Shown piece after piece: positions 9,645 through 32,230 of a DNA stretch of 44,714 nucleotides. Under the pieces are notes generated by a model, which was not told where the DNA came from, did no database searches, and saw only the letters and a list, made by a program, of their open reading frames with translations. Source of the DNA: Bacillota bacterium. Its GTDB lineage: Bacteria; Bacillota; Limnochordia; Darwinibacteriales; Darwinibacteriaceae. Each line of letters opens with the position of its first letter. The stretch's first letter is position 1. The translations under genes and the position numbers were made by a program. The stretch lies in NCBI GenBank assembly GCA_012520355.1, contig JAAYOK010000201.1, forward strand, positions 1-44,714. Reading direction: 5' to 3'.

Positions 9645-11018
9645 ATGGAAACTGCAACAAGACGCAATATCTATGCCTTTGGGCTCGGAACCATTGGGCG
9701 GGATATGGTCTATGCTATGGTGACGATGTACTTAATCTTCTATCTCACAGATATTCTGGGAGTCTCCGACGCAACGCTCTGGTGGATTAACGGCATTATC
9801 TTACTGGCGCGGATTTTCGATGCCGCAAACGATCCTGTCATGGGCGTGATTGTGGATAATACGAGAACCAGGTATGGCAAGTTCAAACCCTGGATCGCCT
9901 TTGGGGCAGTCTTTTCCGGCATCATTACCGTGCTTTTATTTACCGATTTTGGCCTCACAGGAACCGCTTTTGTCGTTGTCTTTGGCATACTCTACCTCCT
10001 TTGGGGCATATCGTATACCACCAATGATATCTCTTATTGGTCGATGTTACCGGCTTTGAGCATGGACCAAAAAGAAAGGGAGAAAATCGGCTCCTTCGCC
10101 AAAATTTGCGCCAATATCGGTCTCTTTACCGTCGTGGCCGGGATTGTACCCCTCACCACCATGCTCGGCGAGAGGTTTGACAGTATGACCCAAAGTTATA
10201 CCTTTTTCACCCTGGCCTTAGTTGTTGTGATGTGGCTGGGGCAGGCCATAACCCTCATTGGAGTGAAGGAGAAGAAGGACGCTTTTAAAGTGGAAGAAGC
10301 TACAACACTAAAAGGCATGCTGCGTGCGATTATCGATAATGATCAACTGCTTTATACTGCGATTTCTATGTCTCTATTTATGATCGGCTATGTGACCACC
10401 ACCAGTTTCGGGCTTTATTTTTTCAAGTACGCCTATGGTGATGAGGGGATGTACTCCATTTTCGCCGTCATCCTCGGTATCTCCCAAATTGGGGCCTTGG
10501 CTGTCTTTCCCCTTTTTAGTCAGCGTTTTAGCCGTCGAACCCTGTATACGGCGGCTACGATCCTGGTTGTCGTGGGTTATCTGATCTTTTTCTTCTCACC
10601 CATGAATATGCTTTTCATTGGTACTGCCGGGATTTTAATGTTTCTAGGGCAGGCCTTTATTCAGATCCTGATGCTGATGTTTCTAGCTGATACCGTTGAG
10701 TACGGCCAGTGGAAGCTCGGGAAGCGAAACGAAAGCGTCACCTTCTCCCTACAACCCTTTATCAATAAGATCGGGGGAGCCATTGCTAGTGGAATTGTAG
10801 GTGCCACCGTGATTCTCTCTGGCATTAACTCCGCGGTAGTTCCCTCGGATGTGAGCCCACAGGGTTTGCTTCTCATGAAGATTGCCATGATGATCCTGCC
10901 TCTGCTCTTTATCCTTGCAGGCTACTTCGTATACTATTACAGGTACAGAATTGATTCCGACATGTATCAAACGATGCTTACGGATCTACAAGAACGGGGA
11001 GATTTGAAGCTCAGTTAA
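9645..11018 (+). CDS. glycoside-pentoside-hexuronide (GPH):cation symporter
   Basis: 457 aa, 12-TM profile. FDAANDPVMGVIVDNTRTRYGKFKPW is the MelB/GPH signature. AGGAGG RBS. Confidence 0.85.
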   Translation: METATRRNIYAFGLGTIGRDMVYAMVTMYLIFYLTDILGVSDATLWWINGIILLARIFDAANDPVMGVIVDNTRTRYGKFKPWIAFGAVFSGIITVLLFTDFGLTGTAFVVVFGILYLLWGISYTTNDISYWSMLPALSMDQKEREKIGSFAKICANIGLFTVVAGIVPLTTMLGERFDSMTQSYTFFTLALVVVMWLGQAITLIGVKEKKDAFKVEEATTLKGMLRAIIDNDQLLYTAISMSLFMIGYVTTTSFGLYFFKYAYGDEGMYSIFAVILGISQIGALAVFPLFSQRFSRRTLYTAATILVVVGYLIFFFSPMNMLFIGTAGILMFLGQAFIQILMLMFLADTVEYGQWKLGKRNESVTFSLQPFINKIGGAIASGIVGATVILSGINSAVVPSDVSPQGLLLMKIAMMILPLLFILAGYFVYYYRYRIDSDMYQTMLTDLQERGDLKLS

Positions 11019-24723: not shown

Positions 24724-24747
24724 GCTAGGTGCGACAAAAAACAACGG

Positions 24748-24784
24748 AGTGGTGGGGGGCGTAGCCTAACCCCACCACTTTTTC
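24748..24784 (+). terminator. intrinsic terminator after pfk
   Basis: 10-bp stem AGTGGTGGGG/CCCCACCACT followed by a T-run. Confidence 0.8.
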
Positions 24785-24802
24785 CTACTAAGGAGGTAGA
24801 GT

Positions 24803-25165
24803 ATGGAGCGCTCTTTCTTTTGTTATTCAAGATGAAGTACCTGTCGCGCGGCCAAGGCTTGGCTCGATGAAAAAGGTATTAGCTACACCTTGCGGGACAT
24901 TACCCAAGAAACACCCAGCACCGAGGAACTAACGGAGTGGGTAGAACGGGGTACCTATCCCCTGAAATCCTTCTTTAACACAAGTGGTAAACGTTATCGG
25001 GAGCTTGCCCTCAAGGATCGTCTACCGAAACTCTCCGAAGCAGAGCAGATCCAGATGCTCGCAGCTGATGGTATGCTTATCAAACGGCCCATCCTAGTCG
25101 ATTCCAGGACCCTTCTGATCGGTTTTAACGAACAGAAGTGGGAGAAAATGTTTGCCTTAAGTTAG
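24803..25165 (+). CDS. ArsC/Spx/YffB-family thioredoxin-fold protein, candidate selenoprotein (TGA 24833-24835 read as Sec, UxxC motif)
   Basis: ATG 24803 lies 6 nt after a perfect AGGAGG. The same frame as the track ORF (24890..25165) gives MERSFFCYSR-TGA-STCRAAKAWLDEKGISYTLRDI, so the TGA sits where family members have the first Cys of CxxC. The 120-aa total fits the family size. A hairpin follows the TGA. Confidence 0.55.
24838..24878 (+). promoter_or_regulatory. SECIS-like interrupted hairpin downstream of the in-frame TGA
   Basis: TACCT (24838-42) pairs with AGGTA (24874-78), TCG (24844-46) with CGA (24865-67), and GCCA (24851-54) with TGGC (24860-63). The apical loop AGGCT lies ~20 nt 3' of the TGA. 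Confidence 0.45.
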
Positions 25166-25232
25166 GAAGGAGATCCCCTCGGTTTCTAGAATGTTAAGTA
25201 TGTACAAAAATTCTAGTGAAGGGGATAGAAAA

Positions 25233-26222
25233 ATGAAAAAAACCGCATTATATGTTTTGGTCCTGGTTTTACTGGTTTCCACCATTGCCGCTGCGCAAGA
25301 GAGGGTAACCGTTTATACCACATTGTTCGAACCAACTGCACGCCTCTTGTTTGAAGCATTCGAAGAAGATACTGGCATCCGCGTCGACTTTGTCCGTCTT
25401 TCTGGCGGTGAAGCAGTAGCTCGTATGGACGCAGAACGCCGTAATCCCCAGGCTAGTATGTGGTTTGGCGGTGTTGGTCTCGATCATATGACCGCTAAGA
25501 ATATGGGCCTAACAGAGCCTTATATCTCACCCAATGCAGAGAACATTCTACCCCAGTTTAGAGATCCAGAACATTATTGGACTGGTATTTATGTTGGAGC
25601 ACTCGGATTTATCTCCAATAACAATCGCTTAGCAGAACTTGGCATTGAAGCCCCAAGATCTTGGGCTGACTTGCTTAGACCAGAACTGAAAGGCGAGATT
25701 CAAGTGGCGAACCCAGGCACCTCTGGTACAGCCTATAACTTTATCGCAACCCTTGTGCAACTTTGGGGCGAAGATGAAGCCTTTGAGTATCTCAAAGAGT
25801 TCCATAAGAACGTTCAACAATATACCCGTTCGGGTAATGCACCCAACCCTGCAACTGGCCTAGGTGAAGTGGCTGTTGGTATTGGATATGCCCATGACCA
25901 AGTGACTGTAGTCCAAGAAGGCTACCCCGTGCAAATTACCTTTGCCGAAGAAGGAACTGGCTACGAAGTGGCCACCATCTCCTTGATTAAGGGTGGCAAA
26001 GAAATGGAAGCTGCTAAGAAACTCTATGACTGGGCCTTAACGGAACGGGCCGCGATTTTGCTGGCCTCCACCAATGTGGTTCCCATCATTGATGTTCCCC
26101 TCAACGAAGGTGCAGTACCCATTTCAGAAGTCAATGTCATCGACCAAGATGATCTTTGGGCAGCGGCAGAGAAAGAACGCCTTGTAGAGAAGTGGAATAA
26201 CGAAGTATTCCGTGGACGATAA
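25233..26222 (+). CDS. ABC transporter substrate-binding protein (Fe(III)/family-1 solute-binding type)
   Basis: Signal peptide MKKTALYVLVLVLLVSTIAAAQE (no lipobox Cys) and an iron/thiamine-type SBP fold pattern. It precedes a fused two-domain permease and an ATPase. Confidence 0.8.
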   Translation: MKKTALYVLVLVLLVSTIAAAQERVTVYTTLFEPTARLLFEAFEEDTGIRVDFVRLSGGEAVARMDAERRNPQASMWFGGVGLDHMTAKNMGLTEPYISPNAENILPQFRDPEHYWTGIYVGALGFISNNNRLAELGIEAPRSWADLLRPELKGEIQVANPGTSGTAYNFIATLVQLWGEDEAFEYLKEFHKNVQQYTRSGNAPNPATGLGEVAVGIGYAHDQVTVVQEGYPVQITFAEEGTGYEVATISLIKGGKEMEAAKKLYDWALTERAAILLASTNVVPIIDVPLNEGAVPISEVNVIDQDDLWAAAEKERLVEKWNNEVFRGR

Positions 26223-26249
26223 GTAGGTACCGCCGTTGAACGATCAAGG

Positions 26250-26279
26250 GGTCCCTCCCATCAGGGGGGGACCTTTTTT
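26250..26279 (+). terminator. strong intrinsic terminator between the SBP and permease genes (intra-operon attenuator)
   Basis: 10-bp stem GGTCCCTCCC/GGGGGGGACC (one G-U pair), loop ATCA, then TTTTTT. Only 18 nt separate the T-run from the permease ATG. Confidence 0.8.
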
Positions 26280-26297
26280 CGAAGGAGGACGAAGGCT

Positions 26298-27989
26298 ATG
26301 GCCGTCGCGAAGCTGCGCAAACCCAAGCACCGAGTTGGGGGCACCGGTTGGTGGCAACTGAGGCAAGACCCCGTACTTTTCATTACGTTGATCATTATTA
26401 GCATATCCTTACTGGTCTTTATCGTATATCCCTTGTTCAAAGTGTTTTTGTTGAGTATCCGACCACGTGATGCTTTCACCTTTGATGTCTATCGCGGGAT
26501 TTTTGGCCAATGGTGGCTGCGGCAAAGTCTCTATAACAGTCTACTACTAGGTACCATTACGGCCACAACCTCCACCATCATTGGATTTCTTTTTGCCTTT
26601 GCTTTAAATCGAACGAATATACCCTGGAAGGGGTTCTTTGGTCAGATGGTCCAACTGCCCATGATCTCCCCGCCCTTCATGTTCACCTTGTCGGTGATCT
26701 TACTTTTGGGTCGCAATGGTCTGATTACAAAGGGGATTTTGGGGCTGACCAACTTCTCCATTTACGGCCTCAATGGACTGGTTTTGGTCCAGACCATCAG
26801 CATGTTTCCCATTGCCTTTCTGACCTTAAATGGAGTGATGCAAGGGATCAATCCCGATCTAGAGGAAGGAGCTCTCGATCTAGGTGCTAGTCGTTTTGCC
26901 GTGTTTCGCAGCATTACACTGCCCCTTTCCGTCCCGGGTTTGGCGAGCTCGTGGCTTTTAGTCTTTGTCACATCACTAGCGGACTTTGCCAATCCCATGG
27001 TCTTAGGCGGGACCTTTGATGTTCTCTCGGTCCAGGCCTACCTGCAATTTACCGGAATGTTTAATGCACCCCGGGGAACAGCCCTCGCCATGATGCTCTT
27101 GATTCCCGCTATGGTAGCCTTCTTGGTGCAGCGCTATTGGGTATCAAAGAAATCCTATGTGACTGTGACGGGTAAACCATCGAGCCCGAGGATTTTGGCT
27201 GTCAGTCCCTGGCTCCGTTGGAGTCTCTTTGCCCTTTGTAGCTTAGTCTGTTTGGTGATCTTGGCCTTTTATGGCACTGTGATCATGGGGGCCTTTGTGA
27301 AGACTTGGGGTGTTGATTTCTCCTTTACCCTGGAACACTGGCGCTATGCTTGGGATGTGGGGGTCAATAGTATCAAGTCCACTGTCTTCTTGGCCTTGAT
27401 TGCCACACCGATTACCGGGATTTTGGCCATGATCATAGCTTTTATCTTGGTTCGCAAGCACTTCCCTGGGAAGAAACTCTTAGGGCTCACATCCATGTTG
27501 GCCTTTGCAGTACCAGGAACGGTGGTTGGTATTGGCTATATTCTCGCCTTCAATGAACCGCCCTTTATCCTAAGTGGTACCGCAGCCATCATTGTGCTTT
27601 GTTTTGTCTTTCGGGAGGTACCGGTTGGGATTGAATCGGGGGTCGCTTCACTGATCCAAATTGATCGGTCGATTGAAGAGGCGTCTACGAACTTAGGGGC
27701 TTCTACGGGCTACACCTTCTCCCGGATTACGTTGCCACTGATTCGGCCGGCTTTTCTGGCAGGACTCTTCTTTGCCTTTACTCGGTCCATGACCGCGGTC
27801 AGTGCCATTATTTTCTTGGTGTCAGCTCGCTGGCATCACCTGACTGTTCTGATTCTGTCCCAAACAGAAATTATGCGCCTTGGTGCAGCTAGTGTTTTGA
27901 GCCTGATCTTGATCATTATTGTCCTAGGCGCTTTCGCCATTATGCGTCTTGTGGTGAGGGACACCACAACGAGGCAGCTGCCAAGATAA
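26298..27989 (+). CDS. ABC transporter permease, fused double-domain (FbpB/iron(III) type)
   Basis: 563 aa, ~12 TM, with two EAA-like loops (EGALDLGASRFAVFRSITLPL and EEASTNLGASTGYTFSRITLPL). Confidence 0.85.
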   Translation: MAVAKLRKPKHRVGGTGWWQLRQDPVLFITLIIISISLLVFIVYPLFKVFLLSIRPRDAFTFDVYRGIFGQWWLRQSLYNSLLLGTITATTSTIIGFLFAFALNRTNIPWKGFFGQMVQLPMISPPFMFTLSVILLLGRNGLITKGILGLTNFSIYGLNGLVLVQTISMFPIAFLTLNGVMQGINPDLEEGALDLGASRFAVFRSITLPLSVPGLASSWLLVFVTSLADFANPMVLGGTFDVLSVQAYLQFTGMFNAPRGTALAMMLLIPAMVAFLVQRYWVSKKSYVTVTGKPSSPRILAVSPWLRWSLFALCSLVCLVILAFYGTVIMGAFVKTWGVDFSFTLEHWRYAWDVGVNSIKSTVFLALIATPITGILAMIIAFILVRKHFPGKKLLGLTSMLAFAVPGTVVGIGYILAFNEPPFILSGTAAIIVLCFVFREVPVGIESGVASLIQIDRSIEEASTNLGASTGYTFSRITLPLIRPAFLAGLFFAFTRSMTAVSAIIFLVSARWHHLTVLILSQTEIMRLGAASVLSLILIIIVLGAFAIMRLVVRDTTTRQLPR

Positions 27990-28003
27990 GGGAGGATTTA
28001 GCA

Positions 28004-29074
28004 ATGTGTGCACAAAGAGTGGAACTCCGCCAATTAGTTAAAATATTTCCTGCACCCGGTGGTAGTGAAGTGCGGGCTGTAGATGGAATTGATTTAGTGA
28101 TTGAACCAGGTCAAATGGTTACATTTCTGGGCCCCTCTGGTTGCGGTAAGACCACCACACTACGGATGGTGGCTGGTTTTGAGATGCCCACTGCCGGCGA
28201 AATTCGCATCGGGAATGAAGATGTATCCACCAAGGCTCCCAATGAAAGGGATACAGCCATGGTGTTTCAGAGCTATGCCTTGTTTCCCCATATGACGGTG
28301 GAAGAGAATATTGGTTATGGTCTGCGTTTTCGCAAAGTGAGCAGGAAGGAATCGCAGGAACGGGTGGAGCGGATCATGTCCCTTGTAGGTTTAGAGGGTA
28401 TGCAGAGGCGAGCCCCCGGTCAACTCTCAGGGGGTCAGCAACAGAGGGTGGCACTGGCCAGGGCCTTGGTTGTAGAACCCCAGGTACTGCTCTTCGATGA
28501 ACCCTTGTCGAATCTCGATGCCAAGCTCAGGGAGCAGATGCGGGAAGAAATTCGCCGGGTGCAGCAGAGACTAAAAATCACAGCCATCTATGTAACCCAT
28601 GATCAAAGTGAGGCCATGGCCCTTTCGGATAAAATCGTCGTGATGCACCAGGGGAAGATCGAACAAGTGGGTTCACCCCAGGAGATCTACCAGCGTCCCG
28701 CCAGCAAGTTTGTGGCGGACTTCATCGGTAAGGTCAATTTCGTACCCTGTCAGGTTGTGAAACGACAAGACCAGGAGACAGTGGTAGAAGCCTTTGGTCA
28801 GAGTTTTACTATCTATAATGTTCCTCGGCTTGATGGCGAAGCGGTCTTGGTGGTACGACCAGAGGCTATGTCTCTTAGTTCTGGTGAAGGGATCCCTGTA
28901 CGGGTTGAGAGCACGGTCTATCTCGGTTCCGCCATGGAGTACAGAGTGGTCTTACCCAATGGCGAGCGGGTTACGATCAATGAGAGTAATCCGAATTTGA
29001 GTAAGCTCTTCAGCCCAGATACAGAAGCCTTTTTACAGCTTGATCCCCATGCGTCGCATCTTTTACCAGCATAA
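28004..29074 (+). CDS. ABC transporter ATP-binding protein (FbpC/PotA type with C-terminal TOBE-like domain)
   Basis: Walker A GPSGCGKTT, signature LSGGQQQR, Walker B LLFDEPLSNLD, plus a ~110-aa C-terminal regulatory domain. Confidence 0.9.
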   Translation: MCAQRVELRQLVKIFPAPGGSEVRAVDGIDLVIEPGQMVTFLGPSGCGKTTTLRMVAGFEMPTAGEIRIGNEDVSTKAPNERDTAMVFQSYALFPHMTVEENIGYGLRFRKVSRKESQERVERIMSLVGLEGMQRRAPGQLSGGQQQRVALARALVVEPQVLLFDEPLSNLDAKLREQMREEIRRVQQRLKITAIYVTHDQSEAMALSDKIVVMHQGKIEQVGSPQEIYQRPASKFVADFIGKVNFVPCQVVKRQDQETVVEAFGQSFTIYNVPRLDGEAVLVVRPEAMSLSSGEGIPVRVESTVYLGSAMEYRVVLPNGERVTINESNPNLSKLFSPDTEAFLQLDPHASHLLPA

Positions 29075-30324: not shown

Positions 30325-30903
30325 CTAAACGAGATCGCAGGCCTCCACGGGCATCCAATGTGGATCCATCCCATCCCATTTGACATTACAGCCAACGGGG
30401 TTGGTGAGGGGCGTTGTGATGGGCTTGCCAGCCACTAACTCTTCTAACGCCTGCTCCAAGTCAAACGAGGTAATCTTTTCTGGCTCCCGGGGACTATCCA
30501 CACCTCGGCTGGTGTACACTAATTTGCGCTCTTGATCGAAGACAAAGAAGTGTGGTGTGCGCAGGGCACCATAGGCTTTAGCCACATCTTGGGTGGCATC
30601 ATGGAGGTAGGTCCAGGGAAACTGATGCTCTTCCATCCGTTTGATCATATTTTCATAGGAGTCCTCTTCGTAGGTATTGGGACTATTGGAGTTAATGCCT
30701 ACAAAACTGACACCTTGCTTCTGGAAGGTTTCCACCGTTTTACGGGTGAGTTCATCGGAGTTAATGACGTAGGGACAATGGTTACAGGTGAAGAAAACCA
30801 CCAGATAGGGACGGTCAAAATCCTGTAGACTGTAATGTTTACCATCGGTTGCAAGCAAAGAAAAATCTGGAGCTTTGCTCCCAAGCGGTAGGGTAAATGA
30901 CAT
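30325..30903 (-). CDS. thioredoxin-fold (AhpC/TSA-redoxin-like) protein with CxxC
   Basis: [16 protein letters not shown]...[12 protein letters not shown] redox motif and a C-terminal GCNVKW extension. AAGGAGG RBS before ATG 30903. Confidence 0.8.
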
Positions 30904-31034
30904 AATCTCAACCTCCTTTCCCTCTGATTCCATGAAGGGAATGGATTTCCTGCCAAAAGGCGGCGGATAATTTCAGAAGGTTATGGGTGGCAGATGCAGA
31001 AGTTGATCAGGAATGTATTTTTTGGAGGTAGTGT

Positions 31035-31760
31035 ATGAATCGCTTTAAACTCATTGCACTTGATATGGATGGTACGCTCTTGAATCGGGAACAAAAGATT
31101 TCAGAGCAAAACCTCCATTGGATAAAAAAGGCGGAGGAAGCGGGTTTGATCGTCTCCTATGCCACCGGCCGGGGACGTGAGTCCTCAGAGCCCTATTGGG
31201 GAGCACTTTCTCCCCAGGCCCCCATGGTACTATCAAATGGGGCAGAGATTTGGAAAAACCACTCGGAGCTCTTGGCCCGCTACACCTTGCCAGGGGAACA
31301 GGTCCCCCGCCTGATCAACTTGGCTCGGGAGCACGGTGCCAAGTATTGGACCCTGGGGAACTGTTCCGATGACCCGAATCAAGTCGGTAGCCAGTGCCTA
31401 AAGGTAGGGATGTACCACGAAGACAAAGAAGTCATAAACAAGCTACGGGCGTTGGTCCGAAGCTGGGATCTAGTGGAGGTTTCTGCTTCGGCACCTACTA
31501 ATATGGAAATGAACCGCAAGGGAGTCACCAAGGCCGCTGGTCTAGCTCAAGTGACTGAACTTCTGGGGATTAAACCCAGTGAAGTGGTGGCCGTTGGTGA
31601 CAGCCTCAACGATCTGGCCATGATCAAGTGGGCGGGCTTCGGTGTAGCCATGGGCAATGCCGAAGAACCAATCAAAGCCGCAGCCGACTGGATTACCGCC
31701 AGCAACGAAGAAGATGGGGTAGCTCAAGTGATCCAGTTAATCCTCAAAGAGGTAGGCTAG
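31035..31760 (+). CDS. Cof-type HAD-IIB family phosphatase
   Basis: [11 protein letters not shown] (motif I), SYATGR (motif II), and GDSLNDLAM (motif IV). Confidence 0.85.
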
Positions 31761-32183
31761 GTGGCCATACCCTTCCCCGGCCAATTCTTCCCGGGGAATG
31801 AAGCGTAGTGCGGCGCTGTTGATACAGTAGCGCAGGCCCCCTTTGTCTTTTGGTCCATCGGTAAAGACATGTCCTAGATGGGAATCGGCCTCGTTACTAC
31901 GGACTTCGGTGCGGACCATCCCGTGGGATCGGTCTTTGGCGAAGCTGACTCCCTTTTGCTGAATGGGTTCGGTGAAGCTTGGCCAGCCACAACCTGCATC
32001 GTATTGATGGGTTGAGGAAAAGAGAGGTTCCCCTGAAACCACGTCTACGTAGATGCCGGCCCTTGTGTTATCCTAATAGGCGTTTCTAAAGGGTGGTTCT
32101 GTTCCGTTTTCTTGGGTGACGTGAAACTGCATTTCTGTCAATTTTTCCCGTAACTCATCCCGTGAAGGTTTTCCTTTCACCAT
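31737..32183 (-). pseudogene. msrB: peptide-methionine (R)-S-oxide reductase MsrB interrupted by an in-frame TAG (Trp codon position)
   Basis: Reading from ATG 32183 (GAGGTG RBS) gives ...[18 protein letters not shown](32073-32075)[18 protein letters not shown]...GCGWPSF...RYCINS. Homologues have YWD at this position. The track shows only the 101-aa tail. Confidence 0.75.
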
Positions 32184-32230
32184 GATCACCTCTCGATCTA
32201 TCTTACCACAGTTGGATAAGGAGTAGTTGC

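Follow-up and report, generated by a model that had tools for sequence, protein, structure and literature searches.

A predicted U-S-T-C selenoprotein related to ArsC and Spx, and its Sec-form and Cys-form orthologues

The gene at 24803-25165 on the plus strand of the 44.7-kb stretch of DNA analyzed here (the window, 44,714 nucleotides) very probably encodes a selenoprotein of the ArsC/Spx-related family TIGR01617, in which UGA 24833-24835 would be decoded as selenocysteine (Sec). A UxxC selenoprotein had been proposed at this site in a first-pass annotation. Two comparative results now sustain that proposal: the TGA is kept in approximately 105 intact homologues, syntenic orthologues among them, and an apical hairpin behind it is enforced at synonymous sites.

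Gene structure and family of the predicted protein

Re-reading of the sequence reproduced every element of the gene as originally described. A Shine-Dalgarno sequence, AGGAGG, lies at 24791-24796 on the plus strand and is separated by a 6-nt spacer from ATG 24803. The frame then runs through the in-frame TGA at 24833-24835 to TAG 25163-25165, for a total of 120 codons. Residues MERSFFCYSR precede the TGA, and STCRAAKAWLDEKG... follows it. Read as Sec, the UGA becomes residue 11 and occupies the N-terminal nucleophilic Cys position of the CxxC motif. TGT 24842-24844 encodes Cys14, the resolving Cys of the resulting U-S-T-C motif, in an alignment column that is nearly invariant. On every public contig examined, the gene is called as a 91-aa, TTG-initiated open reading frame (P0001; 24890-25165, plus strand), a miscall caused by the UGA.

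For profile searches, the TGA was translated as Cys. The product scored well above the cut-offs of Pfam ArsC PF03960 (69.2 versus 24 bits) and NCBIfam TIGR01617, "arsC_related" (104.1 versus 75 bits), but below those of Spx NF002459 (59.3 versus 123 bits), the glutaredoxin-type ArsC model TIGR00014 (46.4 versus 106 bits) and the YffB-type reductase model (48 versus 121 bits). The proposed ArsC/Spx-family membership thus holds at the level of the broad families and not at that of the curated Spx and arsenate reductase models, and the window protein is neither Spx nor an arsenate reductase proper. The selenoprotein model NF041106, "ArsC family (seleno)protein", gave 28.4 bits against a cut-off of 85. 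Two of four other clade members scored 26.8 and 28.9 bits with this model, and the other two were absent at 1e-5. Because the window protein falls short of NF041106 and exceeds TIGR01617, it belongs to a different branch of the ArsC superfamily.

Alignment with homologues, a check suggested in the first-pass annotation, confirmed the placement of Sec. The TGA aligns with the first, catalytic Cys of C-[ST]-T-C, a motif shared without exception by 14 full-length homologues. The window protein keeps every one of the 26 residues that are invariant in the family, and the 109 codons after the TGA contain no further lesion. The nearest solved structure is 3GKX from Bacteroides fragilis (E 5.6e-33), with "ysrcstcraakawl" of the window protein aligned to "ypacstcqkakkwl". 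Matches to 3GKX, 3FZ4 and 2M46 ranged from E 5.6e-33 to 4.8e-25, and all three proteins have CSTC at the aligned position. Their length of about 120 aa and the place of their motif equal those of the window protein, marking them as its true family and the read-through product as normal in length, as had been claimed. They differ in having Cys instead of Sec and are structural-genomics proteins without assigned function.

Spx (Bacillus subtilis YjbD; PDB 1Z3E) belongs to the same superfamily, has an N-terminal CxxC followed by KA[KR]xWL, and places its redox switch at the same two positions. However, Spx is a 131-aa protein with a C-terminal extension that the 120-aa window protein does not have, and nothing in this analysis supports RNA polymerase binding by the latter. 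ArsC of the R773 type (TIGR00014), including its UxxS form, shares the Pfam family and the N-terminal position of the nucleophile, but its motif is UxxS or CxxS where the window protein has UxxC. No ars genes occur in the neighbourhood of the window gene.

Sec and Cys forms across species

To find homologues with the same stop codon, TTYNNNNNNTAYNNNMRNTGAWSNACNTGYNNNNNNGCNNNNNNNNNNYTNGA, a degenerate DNA pattern that keeps the TGA constant, was back-translated from the motif region and scanned over a species-representative genome collection and a metagenome collection. Matches were found in 63 genome stretches (more than 60 genomes) and 54 metagenome stretches. Of the 118 matches, approximately 105 continue past the TGA as intact ArsC-like frames of 105-116 aa with U-[ST]-T-C, and the only chance matches were L045 and L108 from Verrucomicrobia. 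Pseudogenes would not hold on to a single stop codon ahead of an open, conserved frame over so wide a host range. Hosts of the Sec form include Tissierellia, Sedimentibacter, many Clostridia MAGs, Synergistaceae and Ca. Darwinibacter acetoxidans, along with the cultured Lachnospiraceae Dorea sp. D27, Sellimonas caecigallum, Wansuia hejianensis and Faecalicatena faecalis. A scan of viral contigs added just two loci, both of the Cys form.

Several individual loci deserve mention. TGA-bearing copies in L087, L094, L119, L056, L105, L100 and L074 stop or shift frame 25-59 codons on, or are fused to unrelated sequence, and probably represent gene decay or misassembly. The gene of Vagococcus acidifermentans LMG 24798 (Lactobacillales; L020) is an intact Sec form that has the canonical core described below; selenoproteins are not generally expected in Lactobacillales. 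Clostridia bacterium DTU068 carries two Sec-form paralogues 2.7 kb apart on one contig (L103:7824-7876 and 10490-10542; also L012 and L036). In GenBank, relatives appear as short calls only: KMZ52562.1 of Dorea sp. D27 is a 76-aa "ArsC family protein", and BDF36657.1 and BDF32648.1 are 56-aa hypothetical proteins. These calls belong to loci L011, L017 and L064 (proteins P0137, P0139 and P0131).

To assess synteny, the proteins encoded around the window gene were compared with the fetched loci by tblastn, and identities are expressed relative to the window proteins. Among Sec-form loci, L039/L121 most fully preserves the arrangement, with HSP20 (72%), prolyl oligopeptidase (POP, 76%) and PFK (90%) ahead of the gene and SBP (93%) after it. 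L014/L097 and L043/L114 have PFK at 65% and SBP/permease/ATPase at 78-87%; L009 (Ca. Darwinibacter) retains the hydrolase (58%), AhpC (70%), HAD (56%) and MsrB (72%). The same gene order surrounds Cys forms, with TGC in L126/127 (P0002; PFK 93%), L128/129 (P0004; PFK 87%) and L140 (P0008; PFK 87%) and TGT in L138 (P0005; PFK 90%). Thus, the clade is a mosaic of Sec and Cys orthologues. The question raised by the first-pass annotation, whether close relatives carry TGA or a Cys codon, has a divided answer: TGA in the syntenic loci L039/L121, L014, L043 and L009, and TGC or TGT in L126, L128, L138 and L140.

Exchange between the two forms may have been frequent. Parsimony on a neighbor-joining tree of 87 Sec and 119 Cys forms required at least 17 Sec/Cys changes, a count that is indicative only for so short a protein. 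In Sellimonas, the Sec form of S. caecigallum JCM 35759 (L064) and a Cys form (P0132; WP_288723584.1) are approximately 98% identical, with two other residues differing, which denotes a very recent switch. By distance, the closest sequences to the window protein are the Cys forms P0002, P0003 and P0004. Between the window gene and TGA-bearing orthologues, pS was 0.72-0.91 (saturated) and pN 0.18-0.36, and dN/dS against L126 was approximately 0.09. By these substitution measures, the window gene is under purifying selection.

A terminator-like hairpin with a U-run lies 3' of the PFK gene at 24746-24783 on the plus strand (-23.9 kcal/mol; z -3.85; none of 200 shuffles as stable). It ends 8 nt ahead of the Sec-gene ribosome-binding site (RBS) and is part of the context, not a recoding signal. 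No sigma-70-like promoter was found on the plus strand between 24500 and 25350; transcription of the Sec gene could come from terminator read-through out of the PFK gene or from a promoter inside that gene. Downstream, three ABC transporter genes (25191-29074) encode an SBP_bac_1 binding protein, a 563-aa double permease and an ATPase with TOBE_2. In the window, L039, L014, L043 and L138, the transporter separates the Sec gene from the hydrolase gene; L126, L128 and L140 lack it at this place. Judged by this gene order, it is an insertion/deletion polymorphism of the locus.

Window neighbours include an AhpC/TSA-type protein, MsrB and HSP20, a setting that, as context, hints at oxidative-stress defence. 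Two of these genes were considered as further Sec candidates and rejected. The AhpC/TSA gene (30325-30933), with its overlapping upstream open reading frame call, had the look of a Sec-split gene and encodes an intact CxxC protein. The msrB (SelR) gene at 31737-32189 on the minus strand is interrupted by an in-frame TAG (32073-32075) at a Trp codon, not by TGA at a Cys codon. This TAG replaces the conserved Trp of NxYW, which is TGG in L126, L128, L140 and L009; the frame is otherwise intact. Strain L001 (99.6% identical) has this TAG too, and a nonsense mutation that has become fixed is the probable reading.

A short hairpin written in codons 17 to 21

The first-pass annotation described a three-part SECIS-like hairpin after the UGA. 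Such a structure is present as the minimum-energy fold of the window sequence, which pairs 24836-24880 on the plus strand in three helices (-17.6 kcal/mol), but only the apical GCCA/TGGC helix is conserved in the family. The lower helices (AGUACCU/AGGUAUU and UCGCG/CG.UGA) are a feature of the window sequence and are paired in only 25-43% of 83 Sec-form sequences. The extended hairpin was unexceptional against dinucleotide shuffles (z -0.55; 54 of 200 folding as well) and against synonymous-codon shuffles, 21% of which folded as well.

The conserved core is smaller. It occupies 24850-24864 on the plus strand, begins 15 nt after the UGA, and pairs GGCCA (24850-24854) with UGGCU (24860-24864) within codons A17-K18-A19-W20-L21. 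An extra A-U pair in the window sequence, 24855/24859, leaves a GGC loop at 24856-24858. In the family alignment, the core helix joins columns 30-34 with columns 40-44 by the pairs R-U, G-C, C-G, Y-G and A-U. All five pairs are present in 60 of 83 Sec forms versus one of the seven Cys forms with DNA in hand. The six-pair helix, which includes 24855/24859, is formed in 84% of cells over the 83 sequences, compared with 8-60% when the 3' partner is slid. The apical loop starts approximately 20 nt past the UGA and, with few exceptions, contains a G among its first two bases. GGAAA, AGGCT and AGAAG predominate, and AGTCT also occurs. A small, G-containing apical loop downstream of the UGA is a described feature of bacterial SECIS elements (PMC1088965) and is seen here.

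Codon choice provided a further indication that the RNA structure is maintained. Ala17 was encoded by GCY in 79 of 83 Sec forms versus 166 of 331 Ala codons elsewhere in the same genes (Fisher p 3.5e-16), Leu21 by CTN in 82 of 83 versus 633 of 997 Leu codons elsewhere (Fisher p 1.4e-14), and in 66 of 83 genes the 48 nt past the UGA exceeded synonymous shuffles made within the gene in folding stability (Wilcoxon p ~1e-7); related sequences were treated as independent, so these p-values overstate the evidence, although its direction is clear. The search pattern allowed GCN and YTN and did not itself impose this bias. Trp20 is present in 87% of Sec forms versus 53% of Cys-form proteins, and the complete A[KR]xWL motif is also found in 35% of the latter. 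In L055/L099 (L055:4396-4479), a Trp20-to-Cys change (TGG to TGC) is accompanied by a GCC-to-GCA change at Ala17, and together they restore a register-shifted 5-bp helix, GGCAA/TTGCC. This compensated change supports an RNA structure, as read from the sequence.

General structure searches were negative. RNAalifold gave no consensus structure for the 83 aligned Sec-form sequences (84 nt) because the helix is too short, and the named pairs and codon usage were therefore counted instead. The covariation score of the paired columns in the same 83 sequences was not above shuffles; the paired bases fall within the codons for Ala17, Trp20 and Leu21, a constraint that hides ordinary covariation. Rfam had no matching model, with nothing in the window at gathering thresholds and nothing relevant near the site at E values up to 10.

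The window core is the modal Sec-form core, GCCAAGGCTTGGCT, and is identical in L039. At the core residues, the Cys sisters have KDY (P0002 and P0004) or RAF (P0003). Together, a TGA and the modal core are what an inherited, working Sec gene predicts and what a fresh Cys-to-stop mutation does not. Cys/Sec exchange has been reported as frequent, with remnant SECIS-like structures in Cys homologues (PMC1794560). Three Cys forms, L128:6001-6366, L138:6001-6369 and L140:6001-6357, retain 5-bp hairpins where the SECIS core would lie, built from other sequences and amino acids (CCAAG/CTTGG, CAAGG/CCTTG and CCAGG/CCTGG, respectively). They may be remnants of a SECIS after Sec-to-Cys conversion, with chance a possible source given only three cases.

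Rival readings, proposed mechanism and significance

That the closest sequences are Cys forms keeps alive, in principle, a pseudogene in which a TGY Cys codon has mutated to TGA and the SECIS likeness is a by-product of A-K-x-W-L coding. We consider this improbable; the first-pass annotation had called a random nonsense mutation less likely. The sister orthologues P0002 and P0004 do carry TGC, and msrB, 7 kb away and broken by its fixed TGG-to-TAG change, shows that the source genome does carry nonsense mutations. The hairpin of the window, taken individually, is not significant, and more than a third of Cys-form proteins share A[KR]xWL. Yet the same TGA, each time with an intact frame, recurs at the syntenic position in four other species-level lineages and in about 100 genes besides. 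By our estimate, a random nonsense mutation would strike this codon in roughly 1 of 30-40 mutable codons. The unbroken downstream frame with its full set of invariant residues, the RBS and ATG kept in variant alleles, and the exact modal core kept in the window but lost in the Cys sisters are likewise at odds with decay.

It is still less probable that the UGA is a genuine stop between a 10-residue leader and a 91-aa fragment started at TTG 24890, a gene without selenium. Gene callers report exactly this on every contig, but the fragment would be without the beta1-CxxC-alpha1 unit found in all full-length homologues and solved structures, and no RBS precedes TTG 24890. The stretch from the TGA to 24890 is conserved at the protein level. 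In other TGA-bearing orthologues, the first start codon past the TGA falls anywhere from codon 15 to codon 65, a scatter that leaves no conserved internal start. The chance of a base-call or assembly error, or of TGA reassigned to Trp or Gly, is negligible; the bare presence of an in-frame stop is all that speaks for either. The TGA was present in ten of ten independent contigs from several biogas and fermenter studies, eight with the 91-aa call and two with near-identical variants. This agreement among independent assemblies rules out sequencing error and settles the base-call doubt raised in the first-pass annotation. The TGA-bearing alleles differ at residue 4, at one synonymous site and in the RBS region, where L001 and L002 have GGAGG. 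Of 37 window genes, 21 end in TAA, 11 in TAG and five in TGA; all three are ordinary stops, so the code is not reassigned. Moreover, the motif could not survive a Trp or Gly in place of its nucleophilic Cys.

Under the selenoprotein reading, the in-ORF stem-loop with its core at 24850-24864 would recruit SelB and Sec-tRNA(Sec), and the ribosome would insert Sec at UGA 24833-24835 instead of terminating. The predicted product of 119-120 aa would have an ArsC/Spx-related thioredoxin fold with its U-S-T-C redox centre where helix alpha1 begins. Following the established chemistry of CxxC and UxxC thioredoxin-fold proteins, Sec11 would be the nucleophile attacking an oxidised substrate such as a disulfide or sulfenate, and Cys14 would resolve the intermediate via a selenenylsulfide. 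Such a redox centre points to a putative thiol/selenol-disulfide oxidoreductase or redox sensor. SelB-dependent insertion in the source organism and the catalytic role are both inferred.

The conserved gene itself suggests that the source organism is competent for Sec. No selA, selB, selD or tRNA-Sec gene lies within the 44.7 kb of the window. The window contains no tRNA gene of any kind, ARAGORN screening of 60 related loci was likewise negative for tRNA-Sec, and tblastn with E. coli SelD and SelA gave no match in the window or any fetched locus. Glycine reductase and formate dehydrogenase are typical selenoenzymes. Genes for both have been reported from Ca. Darwinibacteriaceae MAGs of the related order, in a study that does not mention selenium (PMC12663870). 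The GC content of the window (~50%) differs from that of the genus of those MAGs (~59%), so the source belongs to a different genus.

ArsC-like selenoproteins have a considerable history. A UxxS form was described from the Sargasso Sea in 2005 (PMC1088965), an "ArsC-like" selenoprotein in 2006 (PMC1794560) and the UxxC protein "Arsenate reductase 2" (cd03032) in 2008 (PMC2398784). Reviews of 2022 and 2026 list ArsC-like selenoproteins, with the UxxC family mapped to NF041106 (PMC9312934, PMC13188914). Those UxxC proteins resemble the window protein in their ArsC-superfamily thioredoxin fold, in Sec as the first Cys of an N-terminal CxxC, and in a SECIS located in the ORF just past the UGA. Their Cys homologues are also widespread and their function is uncharacterised. 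Hosts differ: NF041106-type proteins are from marine bacteria or Deltaproteobacteria, whereas the window clade is from anaerobic Bacillota and Synergistota of digesters and guts. ArsC-like UxxC selenoproteins are therefore already established, and the window clade is outside NF041106 and truncated in GenBank.

We tentatively raise the possibility, which we hold at somewhat less than even odds, that the clade constitutes an uncatalogued Sec subfamily of the 3GKX/TIGR01617 type, with a U-[ST]-T-C motif, a range of anaerobic Bacillota and Synergistota, a minimal 5-bp SECIS and unusually frequent toggling between Sec and Cys. If so, NCBI selenoprotein models have missed a group whose spread includes cultured human-gut Lachnospiraceae and whose SECIS is built from the codons of A-[KR]-x-W-L. 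The window gene opens no new category of system, and gene callers routinely truncate genes of this kind. Nonetheless, corrected annotation would add one more selenoprotein to many digester and gut anaerobes; in cultured gut bacteria, relatives of the window gene now stand in the databases as "ArsC family" or hypothetical proteins of 56-76 aa. With Sec and Cys forms alternating in synteny and a SECIS written in the codons of a protein motif, the clade would offer a natural experiment on Sec gain and loss and on the minimal size of a bacterial SECIS.
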